NCBI GenBank assembly: GCA_036172245.1
Contig: JAYWIR010000032.1
Coordinates: 2,108,001-2,172,000 of the forward strand
DNA: 64,000 nucleotides
From: Raillietiella orientalis
Lineage: Eukaryota
Direction of reading: 5' to 3'
The translations under genes and the position numbers were made by a program. This document shows, piece after piece, positions 36,306 to 60,520 of the stretch. Within the stretch, counting starts at the first letter, position 1. Each line of letters opens with the position of its first letter. Under the pieces are notes generated by a model. That model worked only from the letters and a program-made list of their open reading frames with translations. It had not been told where the DNA came from and searched no databases.

Positions 36306-39300
36306 TCACATGGCAGCAGAACACTGTGCATCACTGCATTGTAAGTCCATATCATCCAACTTATCTAAATATGCAAATATACGGAAATGTAGTCTGGACT
36401 CCAGTGCGTAGTTATGATAATTGTCTCTAGCATGTTCCAATAACTTCCTTGCACTATCAAACTTCCCTCTGTCAATGTGAATTGTTGCTAATTCTACTAA
36501 AGAATATGGAATAAGATACAAGTCTTCCTGTGGTGGAGGATTCCTAGTTATTTGTTCCAAACAACTCTCTGCTTCATCTAAATTTCCCAACTGATGAAGA
36601 CATGCTCCACGAAGACATAGCACTAGACAGTTGGTATCCCAGTGAAACTCTTTGCTGTCTGATTGAATAGCTGGTTGACAATCATCAATTATCTGTAAAA
36701 AGGCACACAGCAAGTCACGATTGCGTGCCAAGTCACGATTGTGAGCCAAAATTCTAAAACAGTTCCACAAATACATAAATTCTAACAATGGCACAGGCAA
36801 TTCAACTCCTTTCATAGTATATCTTTGTGCTTTCCGCACTACAAATTTTTCCATTGGAATCGACTTCCCAGCTATACGTTGTTTCCATTGACATACATTC
36901 CTAATACATCTGTAAATTTCAAGCAATGCAGACATTCATAAGTTCTTACTCCATAAGCTCGAATATTTCATGATATTTTAATGAAGCATCGTTCATTGTC
37001 AGCAAAATACATGCCTTTAAATAGGCATAAATGGAACGAGACCATGAACTTCGCTCCAGAAGCAAATCTGCGAAAACCAAGGCTTTTTCCCATTGCATCT
37101 GCAGGCTGCCAACAAGCTTGTGTCATGTGTATTAAACACAGCCTTGTGACTTACAGATGGCACCACATAAGCTCCCAAAAGCAGATGTGATGGAACTGCT
37201 TCCATTCCTCTTGCACTTGCCAAGAAGCTACTTGAAAGTGAATAGCTCTATCAAAATTTCCGCAAATCAAGTGATAACGTCCAATGAAAAAGAGTGTCAA
37301 AACTCCTTTGGGATATTTCTGAAAGAAGTTTGTGATTCTGTAACCAAAACGAAATTATGCTTACTGAATTTAGAAATGAAACTATTTTATGGCACAGGTT
37401 GAAATCTGGGTCGCAGCAACCATAGAGAACAAGAGCTATAGTTTGATAGAAAAGTAATACCATCCCACAAAGTATCTGCCGAAGACTTCCTTGAAGCTCG
37501 AATCCTTTAATCAGCTGTTTCATTGCGATTTTCTGCATAAAAAATCAGATGGATGGGTCTTGAACCTAGCAATGACTCACCCTGGATGCCTATATAACAA
37601 AGGGAACAAAAAAAAAAAAATAAATAAACGGAGCCATGTAATTATGACCTGGAAAATGAATACAACAGCGTACCTTCCTTCCTGCAAAACCTATAATTTC
37701 TAGTAGCTTCAGAATCCTAGGAGGGAGTAAGGATATCAGCTGGAACATTAAAGTTATAATCTTATTGAAATCAAGAGGTATTTAAATGTGAAAAATATCT
37801 CACCAAATGAAATGTGCCCACTCCAAGATTTACACCACTTTCAAAATGTACTCTGCTTTTTTTATTATTCCATACTGCTTTTTGTTTAGATACAATAGCA
37901 CACTCCCTACAAGAACTCCTTCTGTTGTATGTCAATAACTTACTTATAAGATGAAAAACAAGATTTGATGCACATGCCACCTTTAACAAAGCTTTTAAAA
38001 GTTTCATCTTCCATGAATGTGATCAGTGCCTTCATCAACAGAGATTCAGCATAACACAACTCTGCATGCACTTCACCTAAAATCAACAAAATATAGACAA
38101 TTTTATAATGAATTCGTTATACATATAATTCACTGAATGACAGCACACAAGCAACATTTCAAGATTCAGACTTTGAATATACGGTGTTTTTTAACTCACT
38201 ATCAGTATACAAATCATAATTTGGTCTTCTCAGCCAATTTCCAATATTTTCTGTGACAGTCTTTTTCCTTCGGAAGCTATTGCATACTTGTACGGAATTA
38301 CTTATGAGTTCACAACCGTATTCGATATCTTTCTAAGATACAGCTTCAGTAGACTGAAATTAATATATTACCAAATCAAATGTCATCATGGCCTGTAGAA
38401 ATGACATAGTGCCGCAACCAAGTGCATGATACATGCTGGTCTTGTTCCTGAAAAACCAAAAACAATGTTGTAGCGGTAAAGGTGGCTCTTAATTTGGGAA
38501 TTCATAATGATAGTCAACAAAGATGATTCCTTCAAGGCATCAAAATTCATTCCAAAAGCTAAAAATTCGAATAATTATTTCATTAAGACATTCAGAAATA
38601 TCTATTCCCTAAGAAAAATAAAAGAATGTACAGATGTTTAAATAACTCCTGAGAAACTGTCAATAAATAAATGCATATAAGTACACAAACTTTTACAATT
38701 TTTTTAGTTTTGTTCTTTTATCAAAACAAATTCGAGGTTTCCACTGAGATGCTTGAAAACAAAATAACTTCAAATACTTGAAACTACAGTTTCCTTTCAT
38801 TTTTCGTTTTACTTTCTTTGTTACTATGCCAGTTTATTTACATTCCTTTTTTTTCTTTGTTTCATATTATTCACAATTGTGGATCAGGAATACTATGCAC
38901 ATTCTGTGCCAGGGCAAGTACAGTTTGTTTACAGTGAAATAATTCGCTGAATTTGGCTATTGGAGCTATGACTGAATTTAAGGAAGAATGATGGTTACAT
39001 GTGCTTTGTATTGACCTGTCTCCATGCTCCCTTATTTCTCCCAAAATTCCATTTCTTCAATACTATATCACAGGTTTGAACAGATTTAAAACTTTGTAAT
39101 CTCTCAATTCAAGAAATATCGTTTCTTTTCACTATTCATTTAATTCATTTCCAATCAACATGTGCTAATGATGATTTCTCTACAACTCAAAGCTGGTTTC
39201 TTTTGTCAAATGATCACCAAGAATATTTCAACATCTACTGAAAAAAAGACCTATAGGCATATGGAAGAAAGTTTAAATTTAGCAGCAGAATAGCTTAAAA

Positions 39301-46399: not shown

Positions 46400-48469
46400 A
46401 TGTCGGACACTTGGAATGATATTCAGGCCTTCAAAATAAAACAACTGAGTCTGAAGGAACGATTGCAAACGAGGAAAAAAAAGAGAGAATGTTTCCTAAA
46501 TTCAGCAAACACCTTGAGTGGTAGGCAAAAGAACTCTTGACAAACTATCCACTATGCTATCCACTATGTGAAATTCTTAATTTTTGTGTATATTTTAGAA
46601 GTACCAAGTAATCTCAAAACTGAAAAAGAAAGCAACAGAACCATAATTGAACAAGGTAGTTCTTAATTTGTTGTAGAACATTGCATGCTTGGATGACATA
46701 GTTGAGGATCATTTGCATTTTGGGTTGTTTTTTCAGAAATATTATGTCATCATCACACAAATGTAGAAGTAGAAAAGCAGCTTCTCCAGTGTTTGTGTGA
46801 TGCGTTGTTGATTTTGCCTACAGATTCGCATGTTCTCACTAAAGCTGTTTCACAGTGTTTAACAGAAAATGTCCCCCATATAGTGGTCGAAAACTTGTTG
46901 CAAAAATTTGCAGCCCAGACTCTGATAAGGTAAGTTAAGCCATTGGTGTACTTGTTATTTACTACTATCAGTTATTGGATAGCATTGAGGAAAGCAGTTT
47001 ACCTGACGGTAAACCTTCCATCACAGTTGTGGCAACTGAGCATGCTCGTCTAACTGCAGTGGCACATGATCTAAATACTTCTCTTAGTAGTGATGGTACA
47101 GATTTTCCAAAAAGACAGCGCATTGATGACAGCAAATCGGAATTTTATAAAAGCTTACAAAGTAAAGAAGAAAAACTTCCAAATAAAGATGAGGATATTT
47201 TGGTAGTCAGATAATGTGAATATATTAACATTACATACTTAATATACATACCAGAGCCTTCTTGCTATGCCTACCATCAAGGAAAAGGAAAACAAGAAAG
47301 TTGGAGAGGAAATTTTGGAGCTTCTTAGTAAGCCAACTGCCAAAGAAGTATCCATGACTGAGCGTTTCAAGTCTCAGAGTACACATGTGAAAGAGTTCTG
47401 TTCCTATGGCACTAGAAGTGAATGTGATCAGAGTCGGACAGAAAAGATTTGCCATAAACTGCATTTTAGGAAAATCATTCAAAAGCATACAGATGAAAGT
47501 TTGGGAGATTGCTCATTTCTCAACACGTGTTTCCATATGGATACTTGCAAGTGAGTTTTTTTTTATTTGCTTGACAGAAGGTCACAGTCCTGTAGGTATG
47601 TCCATTATGAGGTTGATGCTAGTGGTATAGATTCATGCAAACAGATAACTAATAAAAAAGACAAAGATATCCCTCGAACTCCCCTTAGTCAGGATATTAC
47701 TGTCCTCATCAAACCACAGTGGATCCAGTGTGATCTTAGATATTTTGATATGACCATTTTAGGTAATTTCACTTTATTAATAAATACATATAAAACCCAT
47801 AAAGGAAAGTTTGCTGTGGTTATGGCTGATCCACCATGGGATATTCATATGGAGCTTCCATATGGTACCATGTCTGATGATGAAATGCGTGCTCTCAATG
47901 TGCCATGCCTTCAGGATGAAGGCCTTATTTTTCTGTGGGTCACTGGCAGGTATGTACATCACCAGAAACATGGTATTATTGAGTTTGTAGAGCTATGGAA
48001 CTGGGAAGAGAGTGCCTTATTTTATGGGGCTACCAAAGAGTGGATGAGCTCATCTGGGTTAAAACAAATCAGTTGCAGCGTATAATTCGAACTGGACGTA
48101 CAGGTCACTGGTTGAATCATGGTAAAGAGCACTGTCTGGTTAGTAGATGCTGATACTGAGATTTAAAACTTAAATTTATAGGTAGGCATGAAGGGCAATC
48201 CAAATACAATGAATCGAGGTCTTGACTGTGATGTGCTGGTGGCTGAGGTTCGAGCAACCAGCCATAAACCTGATGAGATTTATGGGATCATTGAACGATT
48301 GTCTCCAGGAACACGCAAAATTGAACTGTTTGGTAGAGAACATAATGTCCAGCCTAACTGGATTACACTGGGAAATCAGTTACCTGGAGTCCAACTTCTG
48401 GATCCTGAGTTAGCAAAAGCATTTAAGGCACGTTACCCTGAGGGAACAGCCATGATGAAGCAAAACTAG
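46400..48469 (+). CDS. METTL3: N6-adenosine-methyltransferase catalytic subunit (m6A writer, MT-A70/Ime4)
   Basis: N-terminus [27 protein letters not shown] fingers (EFC...[34 protein letters not shown]); catalytic [69 protein letters not shown]. About 9 exons with short introns. Confidence 0.97.
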
Positions 48470-49361: not shown

Positions 49362-50204
49362 CTTTTGCATTGACTATCAAATCCTATTACTGACCGTGGA
49401 GGGCCATGCAGTAACTCCGTTTGTCCTTTCGAAAATTGCCAAATACGAATCTTGCCGAAACCTGTGCTCCTTTCGAACAATCGGGGAAGATGGGATTCAC
49501 GATCTGATCTCGAGATGCGTCGCACACGCACACACGGCAACAGGACGGGAGGAGCACAGCCGTGTTGGATGCTCAGCTGTCCGTTCCTGCGCTGTAAACA
49601 TTCCGTTTCGCACAGCTCTTCCACCCGTAGGCAAAAATAAGGTGCCAAGTGATGCAGATAAATACGGCGCCGGTGCACACACAAAGCTCTTTTACTCGCT
49701 ATAAAAACAAAACAGACATCTATGAACTTGGAACTTCCAAGAAGGCCCAAACACGTGCACAACGACACTGTATGAACGCCAGTGGCAAGGTGGCTTTTTT
49801 TTTTCTTCTTCTAAGAGTTCCATCTATTTGAACTGCTCAGCAATTAGGAAGCATTCAGAAGCATCACAAAGTGTAAGAAAGATACGGACGCAATTTTTTC
49901 CTAGAGATTCGTAGAGATTTTGCAAAATGAACCACTTGCTCCAGGATGCGACTGTTACACACAAACACACAATTTGAATGAATTTCGTAAAGTAGTTTTA
50001 AGGTGAAGTACAACGTGAGATACTACCTAAAATGCGTGCTCATTTAAAAGTAGGAAAAGTATGACATTTTCATCGTCTCAAGTAAGAGTTCAGTGGTTGC
50101 CTCGTTTTCACCAAAGCCGGGTTAGTAATTCTGTTTTCAATTTCTTTTCTGATTAGTAACACGCTTTCCTATACAATTTCAGCCTCACAAGATTTCAATT
50201 ACGT

Positions 50205-50970
50205 CTGTAGCGCCAAGATCACCACCAACTTGCAATTTGGATCACGAGCCGGCTGAAAAATGCTGCGACCTCAAGTGTTCCACCGAATGGACTATTGGCC
50301 GGGGAGAGCTGCTGGGAATCCTTCTTTAAGACCTCGAGTGGCCCTCAATGCTGAAGAATAACCAGACGTCCCCTGAAGTGGCAAGAGTAGGCATTTCTGG
50401 TGTTGCACTGGGGTCTCCCCAACAACGCCCGCCGATCTCACTGGACTCGGGGGATCTGTGGACCCAAACTGCTCCATATGCGGGGAACGGGAATCACTCC
50501 CGCACCTCTTAGTTGACTGTGTTGCCCTCCGGCCCCTTTGGGAACGTTTCGGTACGACCCTAGGGATCGTGGAAGGTAGCCCTCCTAGAGACGTTTTTCG
50601 GCTTTTCTTCGTGCGGGACGCCCTGCAGCCAGTCGCTGTCGTAGCAGCGTTCAGCTGCATCCGCGGTATCATGGCAGCTTGGAGTGAATCCGACGAAGCA
50701 GAAGATGTCGGCATCCTGCAAAGGATGGAAACTCCACGCAGCGGACAGTGATCCCTTCCCGGTCCTCCAAAGAACTATGGTTTTTTGTGTTTTCAGTTTC
50801 CTGTATTTTTTGTTTTTGTTTTCCCCATCCCCCTCCGCTGACGTGGAGTGTCAAGTCGGTCTGTGCACCGACAAGCCGGCAGCTCCCTATGTTTTATTGG
50901 CCGCAGAGGGGCCTTGTACCACAAATACCGAAAGTTTTTTAATAAACGCCCCGGCTTGACCGGGTGAAAA
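50205..50970 (+). mobile_element. Fragment A: 5'-truncated LINE 3' end (ORF2 C-terminal Cys/His domain plus 3' UTR)
   Basis: DPNCSICGERESLPHLLVDC motif; homologous to 55420-56334; ends AATAAA-cgccccggcttgaccgggtg at 50941-50966. Confidence 0.88.
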
Positions 50971-53292
50971 TGTCGAAACAAACATTTCGCACCGCCCCCG
51001 CCACCCTGCCCCGGACAAGGAATGCTACTCCGCGGGTATTCTGGGAGCCTGACCTCCAATGGAGTGTCCCTCCTGCGCGAACTGCCAGATCGACCGCTTG
51101 CTGTTCGGAGAGTGCGTGAATCTCCTGCAGCAGGGTCAGATCGAAGTCGCGCAAGACGTTAGCTACCAATCGCCTCTTCTCGTTGTCCTGCAGCCCGTTG
51201 ACGTTCCAACAGGCCACTCGGACGCGACGAGAAGATGCGAGTCCGCGCATTGCTGCTATGGACATGGAGGTGCGTTCCTCGCCCCGTCCGGCGAGTCATC
51301 AGCCGGGAGCACGGCGGATGTGGGAGCGGAAGGGCTCCCTGTCTCGGCCGCGCCGCTCGCGGCTGGCTCGGTGGAGTCGAGGACCATTGCCTCGGGCTCC
51401 GAGGAGCATCGGGAACCGTTCCCGGCATCAGGCTCTTGCCTGGCAAGTTTCGGCTTGCGCGCAGCCCTGACCTTGACCGGGGCTTGGGGAGCCTTAGCGC
51501 TGCCCTCGGACTCCACCTCGGAGTCCGAATTCCGCGCGCGCGGCGGGCGTTTCGCCTGCCTCTTCTTCTGCTGGCAGCTCGGAGCTGACCCAGCATTCTT
51601 GGAGAGCGCCTTCGGCGCCGTTCCCCCTTTCGGAGTCGCGGCGTCGGCAGCTGCCCTCTCGCCGCAGGTGTTTGCGACGGCGCGCGCGGCGGCAGCGGAG
51701 GCTTTTTCTTGCGCCTTCCTTGGCGCGCGGGGCTGCCTCTTAACCCCGCCTACCTTAATAATTGGAAAGTGCGAAGGATCGCGCGGTTAGCGCTCCTTCT
51801 TCCTTCCCCCAACGGAGGTCCAGCCAACCTCGTCGCCCTCGGGTTTGCCTCGGTTCGGCGCGAGGGCTTCCAGGGTCCTTCGCATCCTCTCCAAGGCCTC
51901 CGATGCGGCGATGGCGGTCTGTGCGTCCGTCGCCACGTCTGCCTTTTGCACCTCCTTACCGGAAGGTGCGGACAGAGTGACAGGATTCTTGGAGGTCGCA
52001 CGAGGCTTTTCAGCCTTTGCCGCTGATCGACTCGCCGTGGCCGGCTTGCCTTTCGCGGGCAAAGGGGCGCGCGACCCCTTTTTCGTTGCTCCGGTGGACT
52101 TCTCGGGCGTGCCACCGCTATTTCTCTCTGGAGCGAGAGCGGACGGAAGCGGCGCTTTTGCAGTCTGCCCGATGTTTTTTTCAGACTGCTTCGCTTGGGG
52201 CTTGTTTGTAGCAGCTTGGAGAAGCTTTTTGTCCTTTCGCGCGGGCTTTTGGGGAGCATTGCTCCGAGAATCGCCCGCGCAAGCGGACTTTTCACTTCTC
52301 CGCTGAGAATGCTCGTTCGCGCCTGATTTCTTCCCCGACGACGGGGCGGATGGAGTCGGCGCGGACGGCGATGTTGCGGGGAGGTTTCTCGCCCTCCTCT
52401 TTCGTTTCAGCTCGGCGCACTCGTTAATCGAGTGGCCGAGCAGTTTGCAGTATCGGCAACTGCGTGTTGGGCACTTCCGCGGACGGTGGCCCTCCTTCCC
52501 GCAGTTGTTGCAAGCAGGGGTTTGCCCGGCAAACCGGAGATAGACGACGACGTCACCGAGGAGGATCTGCGAAGGCATGAGCCTCCGGTCGTCCATGGTG
52601 ACGCGCGCCGTCGCGAGTCCGCAAGAGAGGCGCGCGACTTTATGGATCGGATTCGCACGCCCATACATCGCGTGCACTGTGGCGAACGCCTCGAGTGCAA
52701 CAATGATGTCGCGGTCCGTTATTCTCGGCCGAATGCCCGAGAGCTGGACCACGAACGATTGGTCCAGGGCCGAGGGGACGACCTCCTTACCCCTGATTTT
52801 CAGGGGGGTTCGCAGTAGGCGCTGGACGAGGGCTGCATTTTTGCAGTGCACCTCCCAATGACCTACCGCGCTCACCGGCATTAATGCCAGGAGATCGTCC
52901 TCTCGGACCTCGACGCGTTCCAGTTCGCTCCAGAGCTGGTCTCCCGTCCCATCCCGGTAGGCGGCACTGACCTTGCAGGCCAGAGGGGGATTGTAGCCGT
53001 TTGCGGCGTACGCCCGTAGCTCTGCCTCGTCCGGTGGGGCTCCGTGAGCCGCCGCTGCCTTAGCAACGGCGGCAAAACTTCTCGCTGGAGGCGAGGGACG
53101 ATCGGTGGAGGCTTTCACTCCTTCCGAAGAAGGTCCTGCAGCGCAGGGGGGTTCCTCCACCTCCATGCAAGCAGTTGTTGGCTTTATTTTCATTCGAAAA
53201 TTGCACACCACACCCAAAAGGAACAGCCGCAAAAAACACCAAAGACGGAGCGCAAGAATGCACGTCCGAACAATAAGGAGGGCGGCTATTTG
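50967..53292 (-). mobile_element. Fragment B: LINE 5' UTR, complete ORF1 and start of ORF2 endonuclease, truncated at the junction with A
   Basis: ORF1 with two CCHC knuckles; ORF2 from ATG 51265 has WNVNGL, LLQEIH, RGVAFL and breaks after NVCFD. Confidence 0.9.
51256..53232 (-). pseudogene. Tx1-like ORF1 (gag-like nucleic-acid-binding protein with 2 CCHC zinc knuckles and a long basic low-complexity tail), interrupted by one in-frame TAA at 51787-51789
   Basis: CNNCGKEGHRPRKC and CRYCKLLGHSINEC. The frame stays open after the TAA down to 51256, overlapping the ORF2 ATG at 51265. Confidence 0.85.
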
Positions 53293-53737
53293 TCACCCGG
53301 GTGCGCCAAAGCGTTTATTAAAAACTATCCGGGAACAGAGTTCCCGGACAAAGGAAACACAAGAGACGAAGGGGATGGGATCCCCGACACGCAGGTCGGT
53401 AAACGGAAAGTCCGGAACGGGAGGGAGGGGACCACAAATACACTACTATAAAAAATAAAAATATGGAGGGCAGAGGACAGGGGTCTTTGCTTCCGCCGTT
53501 CCTTCCTTTCAGAACCGGCGATGGATGCCGGCGAACTCTCTCCTCACGCTCTCTGGTAGGTGGGCCGACGACATGCTTGCGCTGGCTAATCCTCAGGGCT
53601 GACGAAGGATGGCCAGCTTCTTCAACTCTCGGTGGGCCTTGTCGATGGCGCGGGTGCAACACACGGTTGCAACGACAGCACCCAAAGACAGGCCACCTGG
53701 CGTGAAGAAGCGGCGCATCAAGTCTCTCGCGGTGTCC
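53291..53737 (-). mobile_element. Fragment B': divergent LINE 3' end lying head-to-tail immediately upstream of B
   Basis: Minus-strand translation ARDLMRRFFTPGGLSLGAVVATVCCTRAI aligns to PRDVFRLFFVRDALQPVAVVAAFSCIRGI of fragment A; ends AATAAA-cgctttggcgcacccgggtg (53319-53294). Confidence 0.82.
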
Positions 53738-56337
53738 CCCTGGTGCAGGAGAGCTGAGGTCAGCCTCAGGGAGTAGGTTGTATTGGCGATGCGGGTACAT
53801 CAACACCTGCGGTGTCGCGTTCTTCCTAAAGCCAGCCGTCCACGCCTCCGTGAGGAACGTACGCTTCGATGACAACGGTCGTGTTGGACAGATGATTCTA
53901 TGCTGGTCCGACACGATCGATCTCATCGTTACCAAAGTGTAAGCTCCGAGCGGTAGCAAAGGGTACGCGGAAAGAACTCAGTTCTTCCAGTACCTGAAGC
54001 GCGACTGGCTGACAGATGCAGGATTGCGCAAGGCCCACCTGATAGCCGGGGACTTTAACCTCCGCCTGCTCTCAGGTGCGTGCTGCACGCAAAAGAACGT
54101 GTCGATCGAGTTGTGCTCCGCCATGCGCGCGCGCAACTTGATGGAGGGACACTCGGAAATGGAGGACAGCATCGACCACGTTTTCCTCGACCACGACCTG
54201 TGTACTCGATTCGGTAAACGAGGAAGGCTCCCGTTGACGCTGTCCGACCATTTCCGTCTGATGTTCGATGTCTGGCCACGCGATAAGGGACCCCCATCTA
54301 GGGCGTGGCGCCTACCGGGGGATTGGACGAGGCTCTTAGGTGCGGCGGATCATCTCCGCCAATTCCTCAGAGGCGTCACCCTCCGGAATCTCGAGGATTG
54401 GGACGTTTTCAAGCGTTCGGTCCGCGAGTTCTATGAGGAGTTTCCCCTGGGGCGCCTTCCCTCTGTCGGCATAGGCTGCTACGGTGCAGCCCCCGTAGCA
54501 GCCTATGCCGACGATCTTCTGCTCTTGTTGCCGATGTCCACCCCGGCAGCGGCAGTCGGAGATTTCTTCGACCTGCTTCGCTGCGGGACCGGACTGCAGG
54601 TGAACAGGGCGAAGTCGTCGGTGGTGCCAGTTGGTGCGGCGTGGGCAGGGCAGCAGGACTGGGTTTGTTTAGGGATCCCCACAGCGAGGTGCCTCAAGTA
54701 CCTTGGTGTGCCGTTGGGGGATTATTACCCTGAGGAATCGCGGTCCAGCTGCCTCCAAAAGGTTGAGACGGCGATCGGCCCGTTCCTGGAAGGCAAGTTT
54801 CACTTGCCGGAACGGGCCGCGGTTTGGAACGCCTTCGCGGCCCCCATCCTCCGCCCCTTGCTTTTCGTTTGCCCCGCCCCCGTTGAAGTGAAGAAGAGGA
54901 CGAAGCACCTCCTCCGTATCGCCCTTTGGAGCAAGGGGAGGCCCCGAGTCCCTTTGAAGGACTTGTGCGCTCCGCGTCGGGACGGTGGTCTTGGCCTCCT
55001 GACGCTGGAGCGCTTGGAAATTCAGCTGCGATGGCGCACCCTTGCCATCGCAGCAAAGATGTGGAGCACCCCTTGGTGCGTTCCGGCTCGCCTCCTTGCC
55101 AGTCGTGTGTCCCGATGCGAAGGACTCGCGTCTTTTCTTCTGTGCTCCGGTCGGAAGATCCGAAGATGCGGCCTACTGCTCGGGTGCATGGCAACCCTGG
55201 CGAAGGAGAACAGCTGGATGGTTTATAGCCCCGCCAACTCCTCCGCCTGGCTGAAGGAGACTGCTGACACCTGGGCTAAGCTAAACCAGAGGAGTGAAGA
55301 CCCCATGAATTGCCTGCGTGCCGGCCCATACACTGCCGCACCATGAGGGAAATACTTGAATTTCCCGCGGGTTGCACGTGGGCAGAGACGACCCCCCTTG
55401 CTACGCCGATGCCCTACCTCCGGAGGGCGCTTGTCGGCAGCCAGAAGCCGAGGTGGCAAGTCTCCTGCCGAATCGCAGGCAGGGAGAAGATGTTAAGCGG
55501 CTGGACCATAGGAGAACTGGCGGACGTCACGACCCCGAGCGTCCAGCCGAGAGCACTTTTGCGATGGGGCGAGCTGCTCGCAATCCCCATGGATGTGCTG
55601 AAGTAGCCCCCGGTGTTGTTTGAATCAAGGATCCTGCCCCTTAAGTGGCAAGAATCGGCGCTGCTACTGTTGCATGGGGGTTTACCCTGCAACGCACGCC
55701 GCTTCCACTGGACAAGGGGAGCGGTGGATCCTCACTGTGCCAGGTGCGGAGAGCGGGAATCGCTCTCCCACCTACTTGTTGACTGTGCTGCCCTCCGTCC
55801 CCTCTGGGAACGGTTCGGCACGACCCTCGGTCTCCCTGTGGGCAGCCAACCCAGCGACGTTCTCCGTCTTCTCTTCGTTCGGGACGCCCTTCAGCCAGCT
55901 GCAGCCGTGGCAGCACTCTGCTGTATTGGAGGCATCGTGGCGGCCTGGAGCGATACCAGCGAGGAGGGAGTGGATTCAAACGCGATGGCTGTCATCCCAT
56001 ATGCTGTTCGCTTCCTGCGGAGAGCTATTGGATGGCCCCAGATGAGAAGATTGAAGATGGACCTCGAGGGTATCCTGATAAGGATGGACCCTCCTCAAAG
56101 TGGACCGTGATTGCTTCCCTTCCCTCCAAAAACTCTTTTTTTTTTTTTCTTTGTTTTCTGGTTTATTTTTCTTTTTTTTTTTTAACCCCCCATCCCCTTC
56201 CACTGCCGAGGAGAGTCACATCGGGCTGCGTCCCGGCAGGTCCGGCATTACGTGGCCGTTAGTGGGGCCTTGTACCACATACTGTAATGACGAGTGAAAC
56301 GTTTTTTTAATAAACGTCCCGGAGTACCCGGGTGGCA
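53738..56337 (+). mobile_element. Fragment C: LINE ORF2 (APE endonuclease fused to RT C-terminal half and Cys/His domain) plus 3' UTR; internally deleted and disrupted
   Basis: LVQE, GDFN, IDH and SDH endonuclease motifs; AYADD, GLQVNRAKS, KYLGVP and GGLGL RT motifs; CARCGERESLSHLLVDC; ends AATAAA-cgtcccggagtacccgggtg (56309-56334). Confidence 0.92.
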
Positions 56338-57720
56338 TCGCCGTAACCTGGAGGGAGACGGTTCAGGGGAAACTGGTCGCAGAACTCGCGGACTGAGCTC
56401 TTCAAGTCGTCCCAGTCCGCGAGCGACTGCAGATGGAAGCCTTGCAGGAACGAGCGAAGATGTTGCGCTGCTCCTGCGAGGCGCACCCAGTCCCCTGGCA
56501 AACGCCACGCTGTGGAGGGTGGACCTCTACCGCGCGGGTGTATTTCTACCACGAGCCGGGGATGGTCGGAAAGTTCGGATGGCACTGCCCCTCGATTTCC
56601 CACCCGCGAACACAGGTGGTTGTCGAGGAACATGTGGTCGATCCTCGTCTCCGTCCCGGCGTCACCGGCCAACAAGTTGCGCGCGTGCATGGCAGCGCAC
56701 ATCTCGTTGACCAGCTGTGCGCGAATGTCGGGCGCACCTGCCAGCAGGCGGACGTTAAAGTCCCCGGCAATGAGGTGCGCCTTTCGCATGTCTGCTTCGG
56801 CCAGCCAATCTCGCCGCAGGCCTTCGAAGAACGCAGTGCGTTCCCCGCGCCTGTGGCTCGTGCCGGGCGCGTACACGTTGGTCACGACGAGGTCGATCGC
56901 GTCGGACCACTTGGCAACAAGCTGCCCGATTTGACCTTCCCCGTCGAAGTGCACGTCGCGCAGCGCATTAACGACGGCTGGCTTCAGCATGAAAGCCACA
57001 CCGCGATTGCGGTCTCTCCCGTTTTGGTATACGAGCCGCCCGCCTGCGATTCGTTCGATTTCCTGGGCCTCCTCTGCGTGGAGCACGTGCGTCTCCTGCA
57101 GAAGCGCCAGGTCGAAGTCCCGCAGGCTGGCGGCCACTTCTCTCCTCTTGCCGTCGTCGCGCAACCCGTTGACGTTCCAACAGATTACGCGCAGTCGCCG
57201 GCAGGAGGAGAGTCCACGCGTTGGTGTGTTTATTGTGCTTGCTTACCGTCCTCCGCCTGCTGTTCAGCAGGCGGGAGTTGTGTATCCATTGCGACGGGCT
57301 GTTGCTCGCAAGGAGGCGGTCCGTCGGTGGTTGTGGTGGTGGTTGGAGGATCCTGCTTGGCCAGGGACGTCTCCGGCGAGGAGTCGCGAGACCTCGCGGA
57401 CATCGCCTCCCCGTCGTCGTGGTCCGACCGCATTTCCTCCTCCGCCGGTGGAGGTGCGGAGCGCCGCGGGTTGCCTACCTTGCGGCCCGCTTTGCGCTTC
57501 GGGAGAGCGACAGCCGGAGCGTTGCCGGCTTCGGCTTCGGACTCGGAAGTCTCCGGTCCTTTCGCCTCAGCCGGACGCCTCAAGGCCTTCTTCTGGGCCT
57601 TGGGAGGCTGCTGGAGCATGGCTGCCAACTCTTCCGCCGCCTTGTTGAAGTCCCGGTCGTCGCTGCTCAAGCTGGGCTCGCGACTTTGTCGCGGCGTCGG
57701 CGTTCGCGCGGCGGCAGGTT
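56338..57720 (-). mobile_element. Fragment D: LINE ORF1 C-terminus plus intact-looking APE endonuclease domain of ORF2
   Basis: WNVNGL, LLQETH, RGVAF, NVYAP, AGDFN, RIDH and SDH in one open frame; ORF1 tail ends at 57230. Confidence 0.9.
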
Positions 57721-58372
57721 GACACCCGGATATGCCGGGGCATTTATTTATGGAAATAAAAATATAAGGAATTGTCGCGTGGCCACTCCAAAACAGCTTG
57801 CAGGTTGCCGGCGCTATGCCGGTGAGGTCCTTCCGATGCGCGGGGGTTGGGAAAGAAAAACAAAAACAAAAAGTTCGAACGTGGGAGGGAACAAGTGTTT
57901 CAGGGGTGGGAGGGCGGAGAAGGGATCACTTTGCGCGTGGAGAGGTCCTCTAGATCCTTTTGAGGATCCTCACAAGCTGCGTCCTATCCGCGCCCAAATG
58001 GCGCCACTTGCACACGCTTCGCACGAAAATGCGAGTCCAATACAAGGCGTTGCCGGTTGGCTGACGCCTTCTTCTGGTGGCGTTCCAAGCCGCCACGATC
58101 CCACGAATGCAGCAGAGGACTGCCACACAAGCGGACGGGGACAAGGCGTCACGAGAGAAGAGGCGCCTGAAAACGTCCTTAGGGCCGCATCCACGCAAGT
58201 CCAAAATCGCCGCAAGACGGTCCCAGAGAGGGCGGAGGGCACTGCACTCAATCAGAAGGTGGGGGAATGTCTCTTTTTCCCCGCGCCTGGGGAGAGAACC
58301 TCGCCGGTCTAAGGACCGGGTATCGATTATATTGCAGCGTGGGAGAACCCAGTGTTCCCCCACAGAAAACAT
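57721..58372 (-). mobile_element. Fragment E: LINE 3' end (Cys/His domain plus 3' UTR), head-to-tail upstream of D
   Basis: GEKETFPHLLIEC...LCCIRGIVAAW; ends AATAAA-tgccccggcatatccgggtg (57748-57723). Confidence 0.88.
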
Positions 58373-58379
58373 TTCTTAA

Positions 58380-59575
58380 AGACTTTATTATCTAATTTTT
58401 GTAACAAATTAGAATAATAAATGCCCCGGCATATCCGGGTGGCAAACGGCGGAAGCAATTGTTGTGCGCTCCGGGGATAGGGAGTTTTTCTTTTCTGGTG
58501 TTTCGTGTGTGGTTCGCGGCCGTTTACGGGCAGAAATGCCTGTGAACGCCGCAGTTTCAGGTGAGGGAGGCGGGAAGACCGCGTCTCCCAAGCCAAAGGA
58601 GGTATGATCACGCCCCACCACTACTTCTGCACCTTCCCCCGCCACTACGGCGAGGGCCTGGAGCGCGGTGGCAGCGGCGGAAACGCCCGATGTTGCCGCC
58701 GAAATCCAATCCTACATCCAGGAGGGCTACAATCCGGCCCTCCTGTACAAGGTAGGAAATTTATATTCCCCGTTAAGGGCGCGAAAGTTCGGCAATGCCA
58801 TTAAAAAGATGGGCATTGCCGACCATGAAATTCTTTGCCTGTCAATACGAGCGGAGGGCAGTTGGCGGAGCTCATCTGCAAGGATGCAGCTCTTACCCAC
58901 AAAATGCTTTGTACGCCCGTACAATTTGAGGGCAGGAATTTACTCCCCCACACGGTGGACCACTCCATTGTGGTTCACCTTACTGGGACAACAGTGCGGA
59001 TGGATGAAAATGCCATCCGCACTTAGCTTCAAAAATTCGCAAGCGTTTCCGCGATGTGGCGAAAGCCCAACGCCTTCGCTGTAATTTCCATCCGGGTAAT
59101 CCCGGGGCGTTTATTAAAAAACATTCCACAAACATGGTACCAGGCCCCACTAACGGCCACACAACGCCGGACCTGCCGGGACGCAGCCCGGCGTGGCTCT
59201 CCTCGGCAGTGGAAGGGATGGGGGAGAAAACAAAAAGAAAAATAAAAAGGAAAACAAAAAGTAGTTGGAGGGCTGGGAAGGGATCACTGTGCACTGGGAG
59301 GAGGGCCCATCCTTCGAAGGAAGCCCTTTAAGTCCGTTTACATCTTCGTCGCGGGTATCACTCCACGCCGCCACGATGGCACGGATGCAGCCTTCGGTGT
59401 AAATAAGGCGTTTAGTGGGCGAGTAGGCGCTCGCCTGACGCTGCGAGAAAGCGTGCAGCTTCCCCACAAGCTCCAAATCGGCGACGAGTTCGTCGACATT
59501 TGGTTCGTGGGGAAGCCCAAATTTTGTGGGAACTGTAAGACGTTCGGGCACCTGAAAAAGCGGTGCCCGGACGCA
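58380..59575 (+). mobile_element. Fragment G: short 3' tip (AATAAA plus hairpin), then 5' UTR and frameshifted ORF1 up to the first CCHC knuckle; interrupted by fragment F
   Basis: EIQSYIQEGYNPALLYKV matches ELRAYAANGYNPPLACKV of B. After F the frame resumes VNKAFSGRVGARLTL...FCGNCKTFGHLKKRCPD. Confidence 0.87.
59085..59389 (-). mobile_element. Fragment F: ~300-bp 5'-truncated LINE 3' end inserted into ORF1 of G with a 13-bp target-site duplication
   Basis: Flanks gccttcgctgtaa (59072-59084) and gccttcggtgtaa (59390-59402); 3' UTR closely similar to fragment C. Confidence 0.88.
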
Positions 59576-59610
59576 GTTTGCCTTTTACTTAATCAAGCAC
59601 CCCTTGCTAC

Positions 59611-60520
59611 TTAAACGCGATTCTCTGAAATCCTTAGAATGTATCTGAAGCCGATGAAGACATTCATTGCATTCATTTGCATCGCCTTTTTGATAATAAT
59701 GATCAACTGCTCAAGTGCAAAAAACATCTCTGAAACATAAGTTTGTACACCATAGTGCAGCACATGAAATGTAGCAAATGCCAAATGATCCTCTGCATCT
59801 TTTGGAGTAGCAGGTCTTTGATTTATAATACGATACAAGTTACCAGGTAGAATTCCTCCTGACTGAATAGCATTCCTTAACTGATCTAACATGCCGCCTG
59901 ATCTTTCAAGTTCAGCAACACGTACATATGATGAAAGTTCTTTTACAATATCTACATTTTTCACTAAATCATCCATAAAGGTAGCTAAGCTTGATGTTCT
60001 CTTCTACTTGCAACTTATTGATACTGTCAAGAACACGTTCAAAACCTTGATGCATTTCAATCCTCGTTCCTTTTATAACTGATAAAATCTTACCATTTTC
60101 AAAAATTGCACTTATTACCACAAAGTTTGTATCCACTTTATTTCTGACCTCTTCAATGGCAGCATAGTTTTTTTGGTATAGAGAAAAGGTTTTGACAACT
60201 TAAAGGTCAACTTTCTCAAAGGTTTTATATTGTTCATGCGGAAGTATGCCAAATTCTTCTGGTGTATCTTCAACTCCAAGACCATGCCTTCATTGTCTAT
60301 AACTCTGTCTTTGTTTTCCGCTTCCTTCAAGTAAGCTTCAGACCATCAACTTCGTGGATAACGTTCATACCTCTGAGCAACTTCATTTACCGTGTTTGTC
60401 TCTAATACATCCATGCCTCCCCTAGAATCGATCTGCTTTGTATTAGATTGTAAAGGTTGGATATCAAAATCTTTTGTAGCCATATCCTTAATTTGACCTA
60501 CACCCACTTTATCCGGGCTT
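59611..60520 (-). pseudogene. Disrupted intronless coding remnant of unknown origin
   Basis: Protein-like segments (SPDKVGVGQIKDM..., LKEAENKDRVIDNEGMVLEL..., MDDLVKNVDIVKELSSYVRVAELERSGGMLDQLRNAIQ...) linked by stops and frameshifts; no family recognised. Confidence 0.4.

Follow-up and report, generated by a model that had tools for sequence, protein, structure and literature searches.

A 64,000-nucleotide (nt) stretch of the Raillietiella orientalis genome (GenBank assembly GCA_036172245.1, contig JAYWIR010000032.1, forward-strand positions 2,108,001 to 2,172,000; hereafter the window, in whose numbering all coordinates are given) holds a 9.4-kb island composed solely of pieces of one family of retrotransposons that lack long terminal repeats (non-LTR). 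Our subject is a pair of short hairpins in the 3' untranslated regions (UTRs) of these pieces, an internal one, H1, and a terminal one, HT. The island (~50.2-59.6 kb) has a GC content of 51-61%, compared with 31-42% in 2-kb steps outside it, and against the remaining 54.6 kb it gives a single 27-nt blastn match (E 0.003) and no other meaningful similarity. All nine pieces of the family, which represent at least three deep lineages, lie inside this one island (window 50200-59600), and the family nests strongly in its own copies. Pieces were labelled from self-comparison, from translations of their open reading frames (ORFs) and from comparison of ORF1, and are as follows.

50240-50970 (left limit approximate), + strand: copy A, 5'-truncated ORF2 C-terminus (zf-RVT) and 3' UTR
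50971-53288, - strand: copy C, complete 5' UTR, ORF1 with gag knuckles, and the first part of the ORF2 endonuclease; stops at the 3' end of A
53289-53795 (upper limit approximate), - strand: copy B, 5'-truncated ORF2 C-terminus and 3' UTR; deep lineage
53800-56337, + strand: copy D, C-terminal part of the endonuclease, internal deletion, YADD region of the reverse transcriptase (RT), zf-RVT and 3' UTR
56338-57718, - strand: copy H, C-terminal part of ORF1 and complete ORF2 endonuclease; stops at the 3' end of D
57719-58375, - strand: copy E, 5'-truncated ORF2 C-terminus and 3' UTR; deep lineage
~58376-58446 (upstream limit by eye), + strand: piece G, E-like tail stump of ~65 nt with HT, directly before the 5' UTR of copy I
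58447-59585, + strand: copy I/J, 5' UTR and ORF1 to the first gag knuckle, with F inserted; ends at AT-rich DNA
59086-59389, - strand: copy F, 304-bp 5'-truncated copy nested in I/J

The whole 3' UTR is present in five pieces (A, B, D, E and F). Piece G, in which 30 nt are 97% identical to the end of copy E, was at one point taken for a sixth 3' UTR (58290-58441), which we ruled out as the tail is found only in its last ~65 nt. Across the aligned tails D and F are 84% identical, A is ~70% identical to D and F, and B and E are 43-54% identical to all others, with no blastn similarity between the UTR of B and the other UTRs; by these identities the copies fall into three deep lineages, A/D/F, B and E.

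The ORFs of the island encode an Exo_endo_phos apurinic/apyrimidinic (AP)-type endonuclease (E 5e-15), a C-terminal zf-RVT domain and a gag-type zinc knuckle (zf-CCHC). L1-EN and chimeras of L1-EN give the endonuclease its best solved-structure matches (E 4e-10 to 1e-8). A database protein, P0003, is 63% identical to the ORF2 fragment of copy D (window 53943-55346, E 3e-108), and its RT matches human L1 ORF2p at E 7e-40 versus R2 at E 7e-17. Because the endonuclease is closest to L1-EN and the RT of P0003 is nearer to L1 than to R2, we call the family an L1-like (L1/Tx1 group) long interspersed nuclear element (LINE), an assignment by domain and structure matches.

An initial annotation of this DNA had reported a covarying stem-loop with a held loop in these 3' UTRs, and reading the sequence directly we find all five of its hairpins, with the positions, strands and loops that it gave. 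We aligned the five tails with MAFFT from a C-rich block to the 3' end (alignment A2), where H1 occupies columns 41-58.

50855-50872, + strand: H1 of copy A, GTCGGT-CTGTGC-ACCGAC, A2 columns 41-58
53384-53399, - strand: H1 of copy B, CCGAC-CTGCGT-GTCGG, with an A-U pair (columns 45-54) that is a double-sided change
56221-56236, + strand: H1 of copy D, TCGGG-CTGCGT-CCCGG, outer pair U.G
57808-57822, - strand: H1 variant of copy E, CCGGC-ATAGC-GCCGG, placement alignment-dependent
59175-59192, - strand: H1 of copy F, GCCGGG-CTGCGT-CCCGGC

In 5/5 copies H1 follows the ORF2 stop and a T-rich, then C-rich tract, and precedes AATAAA. The 5-bp core starts 111 (A), 106 (B), 114 (D), 100 (E) and 103 (F) nt before a terminal GTG/ATG, and the hairpins are positionally homologous, as had been proposed, in that all five share the same alignment columns and the same distance from the 3' end. 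Copy E is a weak member, since its H1 slides by one arm in a MAFFT alignment with less upstream context (A3) and its homology rests on distance and on A2. Taken singly, a hairpin of this type means little because the class (5 bp, loop of 5-6, at most one G.U) is so frequent in the island, with starts at 119 (+ strand) and 110 (- strand) of 9341 positions each, or about once per 80 nt. One such hairpin, at 58303-58322 (+, CCGGT-CTAAGG-ACCGG), at first aligned under H1 and was set aside as a chance match, being antisense to the ORF2 C-terminus of E; the look-alike is a warning on hairpin density in GC-rich DNA.

What distinguishes H1 from such background is how it varies. Five core pairs in five copies make 25 cells, and 25/25 are standard pairs. 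Two of the pairs are invariant (C-G and G-C) and the other 3/5 carry double-sided changes: the closing pair is C-G in two copies, G-C in two and U-A in one, the pair next to it is G-C in four and A-U in one, and the outer pair is C-G in three, U-A in one and U.G in one. A sixth, outer pair is present in 2/5 copies (A and F only). The loop reads CUGCGU in B, D and F, CUGUGC in A and AUAGC in E, and copy B, whose stem letters differ and nevertheless pair, has the loop of D and F exactly. The proposal of a hairpin that covaries across diverged subfamilies is thus borne out, while the proposed loop consensus, CUG(C/U)G(U/C), describes four copies and not E, and in A, D and F its letters 2-4 can also pair downstream, as described below. 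Given the alignment alone, RNAalifold, one of the checks originally suggested, returns H1 (columns 42-46 with 53-57) and a second hairpin at the very end of the tail.

This second hairpin, HT, had no place in the initial finding and is the other element common to all copies. At 6/6 ends, including that of G, the tail closes with U5-7, AAUAAA, YG, CCCGG-N4-5-CCGGG and UG, with small departures in B, where UUUGG pairs with CCGGG through three U.G, and in F, where the register is shifted by one.

50941-50970, + strand: 3' terminus of A, AATAAA, HT 50950-50964, TG, AAAA
53289-53319, - strand: 3' terminus of B, AATAAA, HT 53296-53310, TG, ACAAA; 5' UTR of copy C directly after
56309-56337, + strand: 3' terminus of D, AATAAA, HT 56318-56332, TG, GCA
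57719-57748, - strand: 3' terminus of E, AATAAA, HT 57725-57739, TG, TCAA; ORF1 part of copy H directly after
58376-58446, + strand: tail stump G, HT 58425-58439, GCAAA after UG
59086-59115, - strand: 3' terminus of F, AATAAA, HT 59092-59105 (register CCGGG/CCCGG), ATG, GAA, then target-site duplication

The pattern AATAAAYG, short hairpin, TG has six matches in the window, all in the island, and none in 100 shuffles. Judged on the alignment, HT and not H1 is the most conserved part of the tail. In comparisons of B and E with the other copies, identity is 29-46% in the flanks, about the level of noise, and reaches 44-67% across the H1 block and 61-83% across the HT block, so that H1 and HT are, on these figures, islands of conservation. 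Scored together, H1 and HT have 92.7% of 55 cells paired versus 84.8% in column shuffles (2/500 as high) and a covariation score of 0.409 versus 0.237 (4/500 as high), a control that gives support and not proof, and no probability, as kin sequences without structure can exceed shuffles. When the partner is moved by 1-3 columns, at most 60% of cells are paired. We take H1 to lie beyond chance because of its position in 5/5 copies, the loop shared by B with D and F, the 25/25 paired cells, the double-sided changes at 3/5 pairs and the shuffle controls together.

Two accounts that need no RNA signal bear on these same data. The first holds that H1 has no function, being a slowly decaying GC-rich palindromic remnant whose covariation is a small-sample accident. 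It can point to a sample of five, to the density of H1-class hairpins and the one chance hairpin that aligned with H1, to a shuffle control that is not a probability, and to the weak thermodynamic support for H1; it has to explain why the flanks of B and E have decayed to 29-46% identity and yet every core cell pairs, why B keeps the exact 6-nt loop of D and F, and how three closing-pair types arose with zero mismatches. We consider it quite unlikely. The second holds that H1 is a DNA palindrome, either a CGG-N8-CCG site for a dimeric protein or a recombination or cruciform site. A, D and F do read CGG-N8-CCG, a perfect palindrome reads alike on either strand, and the antisense hairpins match the sense hairpins in stability. 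In B, however, both half-sites have changed, from CGG/CCG to CGA/UCG (CGA/TCG in the DNA), and are compensated, which fits RNA pairing and not a fixed DNA-binding site; in E the spacing is N7; and the H1 loop is conserved, non-palindromic and in one orientation to the ORF in 5/5 copies. This account strikes us as very improbable indeed. U.G pairs that form in the sense strand only are found three times in the HT of B and once in the H1 of D, and the resulting strand asymmetry is a weak hint in favour of RNA.

The 3' ends themselves are fixed. After the terminal UG come only 3-5 letters (AAAA, ACAAA, GCA, UCAA, GCAAA and GAA), so that 6/6 copies end 3-7 nt past HT with 1-4 A's. Target-site duplications were sought at all six ends and found at one, that of copy F, where direct repeats of 13 bp that differ at one position, GCCTTCG(C/G)TGTAA, lie on either side (59072-59084 and 59390-59402) and so fix its end exactly. 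The ORF1 halves around copy F are contiguous in the ORF1 of copy C, and a contig of a second sequencing run, X1, joins 59020 directly with 59411, apparently the site of copy F without its insert. The target nick, on the + strand, is TAAAT/AA, and at this one defined target there is no sign of a GC-rich target preference. New copies are accordingly made with a precise 3' end and hardly any A tail, which is how stringent-type LINEs behave and mammalian L1 does not (PMC3747384).

The same termini could be read as marks of messenger RNA processing, the hairpins serving 3'-end formation or stability, with HT setting the poly(A) site, H1 acting as an upstream auxiliary or stabilising element, and copies ending at the cleavage point. 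AATAAA lies 3 nt before HT in 6/6 ends, a CA dinucleotide lies 1 nt after the terminal TG of the hairpin in 4/6 (B, D, E and G), the spacing of this CA past AAUAAA is the usual cleavage distance, and HT shows no double-sided changes. This reading leaves the at most four A's per copy unexplained and still needs a precise start of complementary DNA (cDNA) synthesis, and H1 is GC-rich and ~85-95 nt upstream of AAUAAA, unlike the known upstream polyadenylation elements, which are U-rich. As a replacement for recognition by the RT we find it fairly unlikely, but the two roles are compatible and not exclusive.

Three of the six 3' ends join another copy in the same orientation, at 53288/53289 (-), 57718/57719 (-) and 58446/58447 (+). 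Both full-length 5' ends in the window, those of C and I, are directly preceded by an exact 3' end, of B and of the stump G, respectively, and the 3' end of copy E adjoins copy H, which is truncated within ORF1. No target-site duplication was found at any of these three junctions. The arrangement fits jumping of the RT from one template onto the 3' end of another RNA, or alternatively insertion aimed at the 3' end of the family. Template-jump-like junctions at 3/6 ends are what an RT seeking the 3' end of the tail would produce.

Other junctions in the island have a different form. The 3' ends of A and D (50970/50971 and 56337/56338) adjoin the interior of oppositely oriented copies, C within the endonuclease and H just past it, and on the far side of the A/C and D/H junctions the rest of C and H is missing. 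Twin priming was ruled out for these inverted junctions on inferred geometry, as it brings two 5' sides together, whereas these junctions set a 3' end against the inside of a copy. Three copies, C, H and I/J, lack their 3' parts, a form of truncation that target-primed reverse transcription does not generate; deletions at a later time, a rearrangement or an assembly error in the repeat cluster could account for it.

In structure prediction, HT is in the minimum-energy fold of 4/5 tails (A, D, E and F). In folds of the whole UTR, H1 has a pair probability of 0.89 in A and 0.99 in E and of ~0 in B, D and F, and in segments of 47-55 nt the best local fold that contains H1 lies 0.6-4.1 kcal/mol above the optimum in 5/5 copies. 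Compared with shuffles, the tail of B folds with z = -4.13 and the other four with z between -1.26 and +0.31, and the value for B is due to a B-specific hairpin and not to H1. That hairpin, at 53345-53375 (-), UCCGGGAAC ... GUUCCCGGA, has 12 pairs, stands just upstream of the U-run and AAUAAA, and occurs in none of the other four.

In A, D and F the competing structure is an extended hairpin, in which the 5' arm of H1 pairs with a downstream (G/U)CCGGC and loop letters 2-4 (UGC/UGU) pair with GCA/ACA. It is predicted as both the minimum-free-energy and the centroid fold in A and F and as the centroid in D. Its partner segment overlaps a further stem, CGGC...GCCG, which the initial annotation had placed after H1.

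50877-50903, + strand: second stem CGGC...GCCG of copy A, 19-nt loop
56243-56258, + strand: second stem CGGC...GCCG of copy D, 8-nt loop
59154-59169, - strand: second stem CGGC...GCCG of copy F, 8-nt loop

The 5' arm of this second stem doubles as the partner of the H1 5' arm in the extended hairpin. Loops of 8-19 nt had been attributed to the second stem, and these lengths are correct for the copies that have it (19 nt in A, 8 nt in D and F), but the stem is absent in B and E. Its four pairs are invariant, and because they never vary, covariation cannot judge it; the proposal of a multi-stem element built with this stem, which is confined to the A/D/F lineage, is not upheld. A helix CUGCCG/CGGCAG seen in D and F was also rejected as not kept across copies (73% of cells paired, 55/500 shuffles as high), and a check by eye for a distal partner of the H1 loop, as in a pseudoknot, found none that was consistent.

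These folds raise the possibility that the functional fold of A, D and F is the one extended hairpin, with H1 in B and E a simpler relative, or that the element has two folds between which it alternates. In each of these three copies the extended hairpin is either the minimum-free-energy or the centroid fold; it is 2.5-4.1 kcal/mol better than any local H1 fold there, and at two of its pairs both sides differ in A as against D/F. It further accounts for loop position 4, where C or U goes with G or A in the 3' arm, a covariation implying that the H1 stem with a held loop is not the sole fold allowed. B and E, however, lack the partner segment, so the extended hairpin is not common to all five; it carries mismatches, C.A in A and A.C in D; and only three sequences bear on it. 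We regard this alternative as unlikely. H1 remains the sole hairpin available to all five copies, and within A/D/F the data do not decide between it and the extended hairpin.

We favour the reading that H1 and HT together form the cis-acting 3' tail of a stringent-type LINE that is read by the ORF2 protein of the element itself, and we put its probability at about one half. A cis-acting RNA element, as the initial annotation had suggested, still appears the best reading of a covarying, positionally homologous 3' UTR hairpin, although not in the multi-stem form given to it by the second stem. The ORF2 protein would bind the structured tail of the RNA that encodes it. HT would set both the RNA end and the start of cDNA synthesis, and H1 would provide a second, internal contact, recognised by shape in its stem and by sequence in its loop, so that target-primed reverse transcription would start at a fixed point and not within a long poly(A). 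The fold in the cell, the ORF2 protein as reader and the separate roles given to H1 and HT are what we infer in this scheme.

Several observations weigh against this reading. Besides the limit on the column-shuffle control given above, the comparative sample, which sets the strongest limit, is small, with five copies from three deep lineages in one 9.4-kb island. From the second sequencing run (X1, entered as 'DNA?', share 0.12; the one run listed for this DNA, with no RNA run beside it) 378 contigs were placed at 80% likeness, 9 of them at 99+%, 27 at 95-99%, 96 at 90-95% and 246 below 90%; among the matches listed none lies over the H1 or HT positions, and these matches give no covariation data. 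HT has double-sided changes at 0/5 pairs and is possibly conserved as sequence. The strand asymmetry is slight, with 49-50 of 50 core cells paired in the sense strand (depending on the register of F) versus 46 of 50 in the antisense. The folding results, namely the near-zero H1 pair probabilities in B, D and F, the local optima without H1 in 5/5 copies and the z-scores, do not favour H1, and the extended hairpin has its own double-sided changes between A and D/F, from C-G to U-A and from G.U to U.G. Finally, a short interspersed nuclear element (SINE) sharing the tail, which had been suggested as a check, was not found in the 64-kb window, nor does any tail motif occur outside the island.

The kind of element is, by the precedents in the passages cited here, already known. 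In the L2 clade (zebrafish ZfL2-1 and ZfL2-2, eel UnaL2), PMC4176376 describes an ORF2 protein that binds the stem generally and the loop specifically, and 3' tail stem-loops with compensatory changes and conserved loop letters. Our tails resemble these in having a small conserved 3' stem-loop with no need of a long poly(A) (PMC4176376), the positional analogue of the L2 stem-loop here being HT and not H1. They differ in clade, being L1-like, and in their ends, as L2 tails are described as ending in short tandem repeats (PMC3747384), of which there are none here.

Closer in clade is a monocot L1 lineage for which PMC3747384 and PMC3472496 describe a 3' hairpin that shows compensatory changes and keeps its loop, UCU, read as stringent recognition. 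The likeness lies in the L1 type, the varying stem letters and the conserved loop (UCU there, CUGYGY here); the difference is that, according to PMC3747384, the plant elements end in poly(A) and share their tail with SINEs, whereas here A runs are at most four and no such SINE was found in the window; the hairpin sequences also differ. For human L1, a 3' UTR stem-loop has been proposed as an aid to RT recognition (PMC5135761). Mammalian L1 is treated in PMC3747384 as relaxed and poly(A)-dependent, in contrast to the absence of long A tails here.

R2 offers a parallel to the junctions. In its self-specific choice of template the protein binds just a 40-nt two-stem core within a 248-nt 3' UTR, synthesis starts exactly at the 3' end, and the RT is capable of template jumping, as set out in PMC10499050, and the 3' ends joined to 5' parts of other copies in our island would fit such jumping. 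R2 differs in having a restriction-like endonuclease, a single ORF and specificity for 28S ribosomal DNA (PMC10499050), while the present family has an AP-type endonuclease, two ORFs and a habit of nesting in its own copies. Hebe of Adineta vaga, considered as the same family, was ruled out, being described in PMC2861651 as of the jockey clade, with a 5-25 nt poly(A), three knuckles and a 3' UTR of 0.8-1 kb.

The family looks rare and very isolated in public protein data. Among 1.84 billion representative proteins, HMMER finds 40 at E up to 1e-3 and just one, P0003, below 1e-10; the second-best relative of the copy D ORF2 is at E 8e-8 and the remainder are as weak or weaker. Two word-index protein searches, at near and longer lengths, gave no hit, and a scan of viral contigs with the ORF2 C-terminus gave no relative. 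Scans with the tail pattern returned 10 loci in metagenome contigs and 7 in genome contigs, of which 0/17 are island-like by blastn or tblastx, and which by this comparison are chance matches, mostly in bacterial records.

A search with Rfam cmscan over 49500-60000 on both strands, at E up to 1, gave no relevant match, and none to curated LINE 3' families such as the UnaL2 LINE 3' element or the R2 RNA element, in keeping with the initial suggestion of a possibly undescribed element. Its two matches, CRISPR-DR28 and uc_338, are unrelated and below the gathering score. The second is spurious and falls where copy D has its internal deletion, on an inverted repeat (54465-54512) made of two perfect 20-nt arms set 8 nt apart. 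The right arm codes for the RT motif AAYADD and the left arm, immediately following the endonuclease part, is its inverted duplicate, a pattern resembling a fold-back that arose with the deletion. Four 14-nt strings from the tail and H1 had no match in the literature searched by sequence string, and probably neither the family nor its tail has been described. In its part outside the island the window also contains pieces of host genes, a TTC39/Iml2-like TPR exon at 36306-36935 (-, E 2e-18) and an MT-A70 methyltransferase domain at 47555-48085 (+, E 1e-15).

Taken further, the data would accommodate an undescribed, deeply diversified L1-like lineage with an R2-like 3' end, in which H1 and HT are read by the ORF2 protein, priming occurs at one nucleotide on any DNA 3'-OH, the same affinity makes the RT jump from the 5' end or inside of one RNA to the 3' end of another and so builds head-to-tail chimeras (three here), and H1 and the extended hairpin are a possible switch in A/D/F. 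We offer this fuller picture tentatively and think it more likely wrong than right.

The signal type is well known, and current views are not overturned by it. What is conserved amounts to two hairpins, each 15-18 nt long, in a UTR that otherwise cannot be aligned, and if our reading is true they would make the tail a compact and testable candidate for a tag by which the RT selects its own RNA, comparable with the 43-nt tag of R2 described in PMC10499050. If confirmed, an L1-type lineage would join those LINEs whose recognition signal is a structured 3' tail instead of poly(A), which bears on whether the ancestor of the L1 group already had stringent recognition, as Ohshima's proposal, in the passages cited of PMC3747384, would have it.

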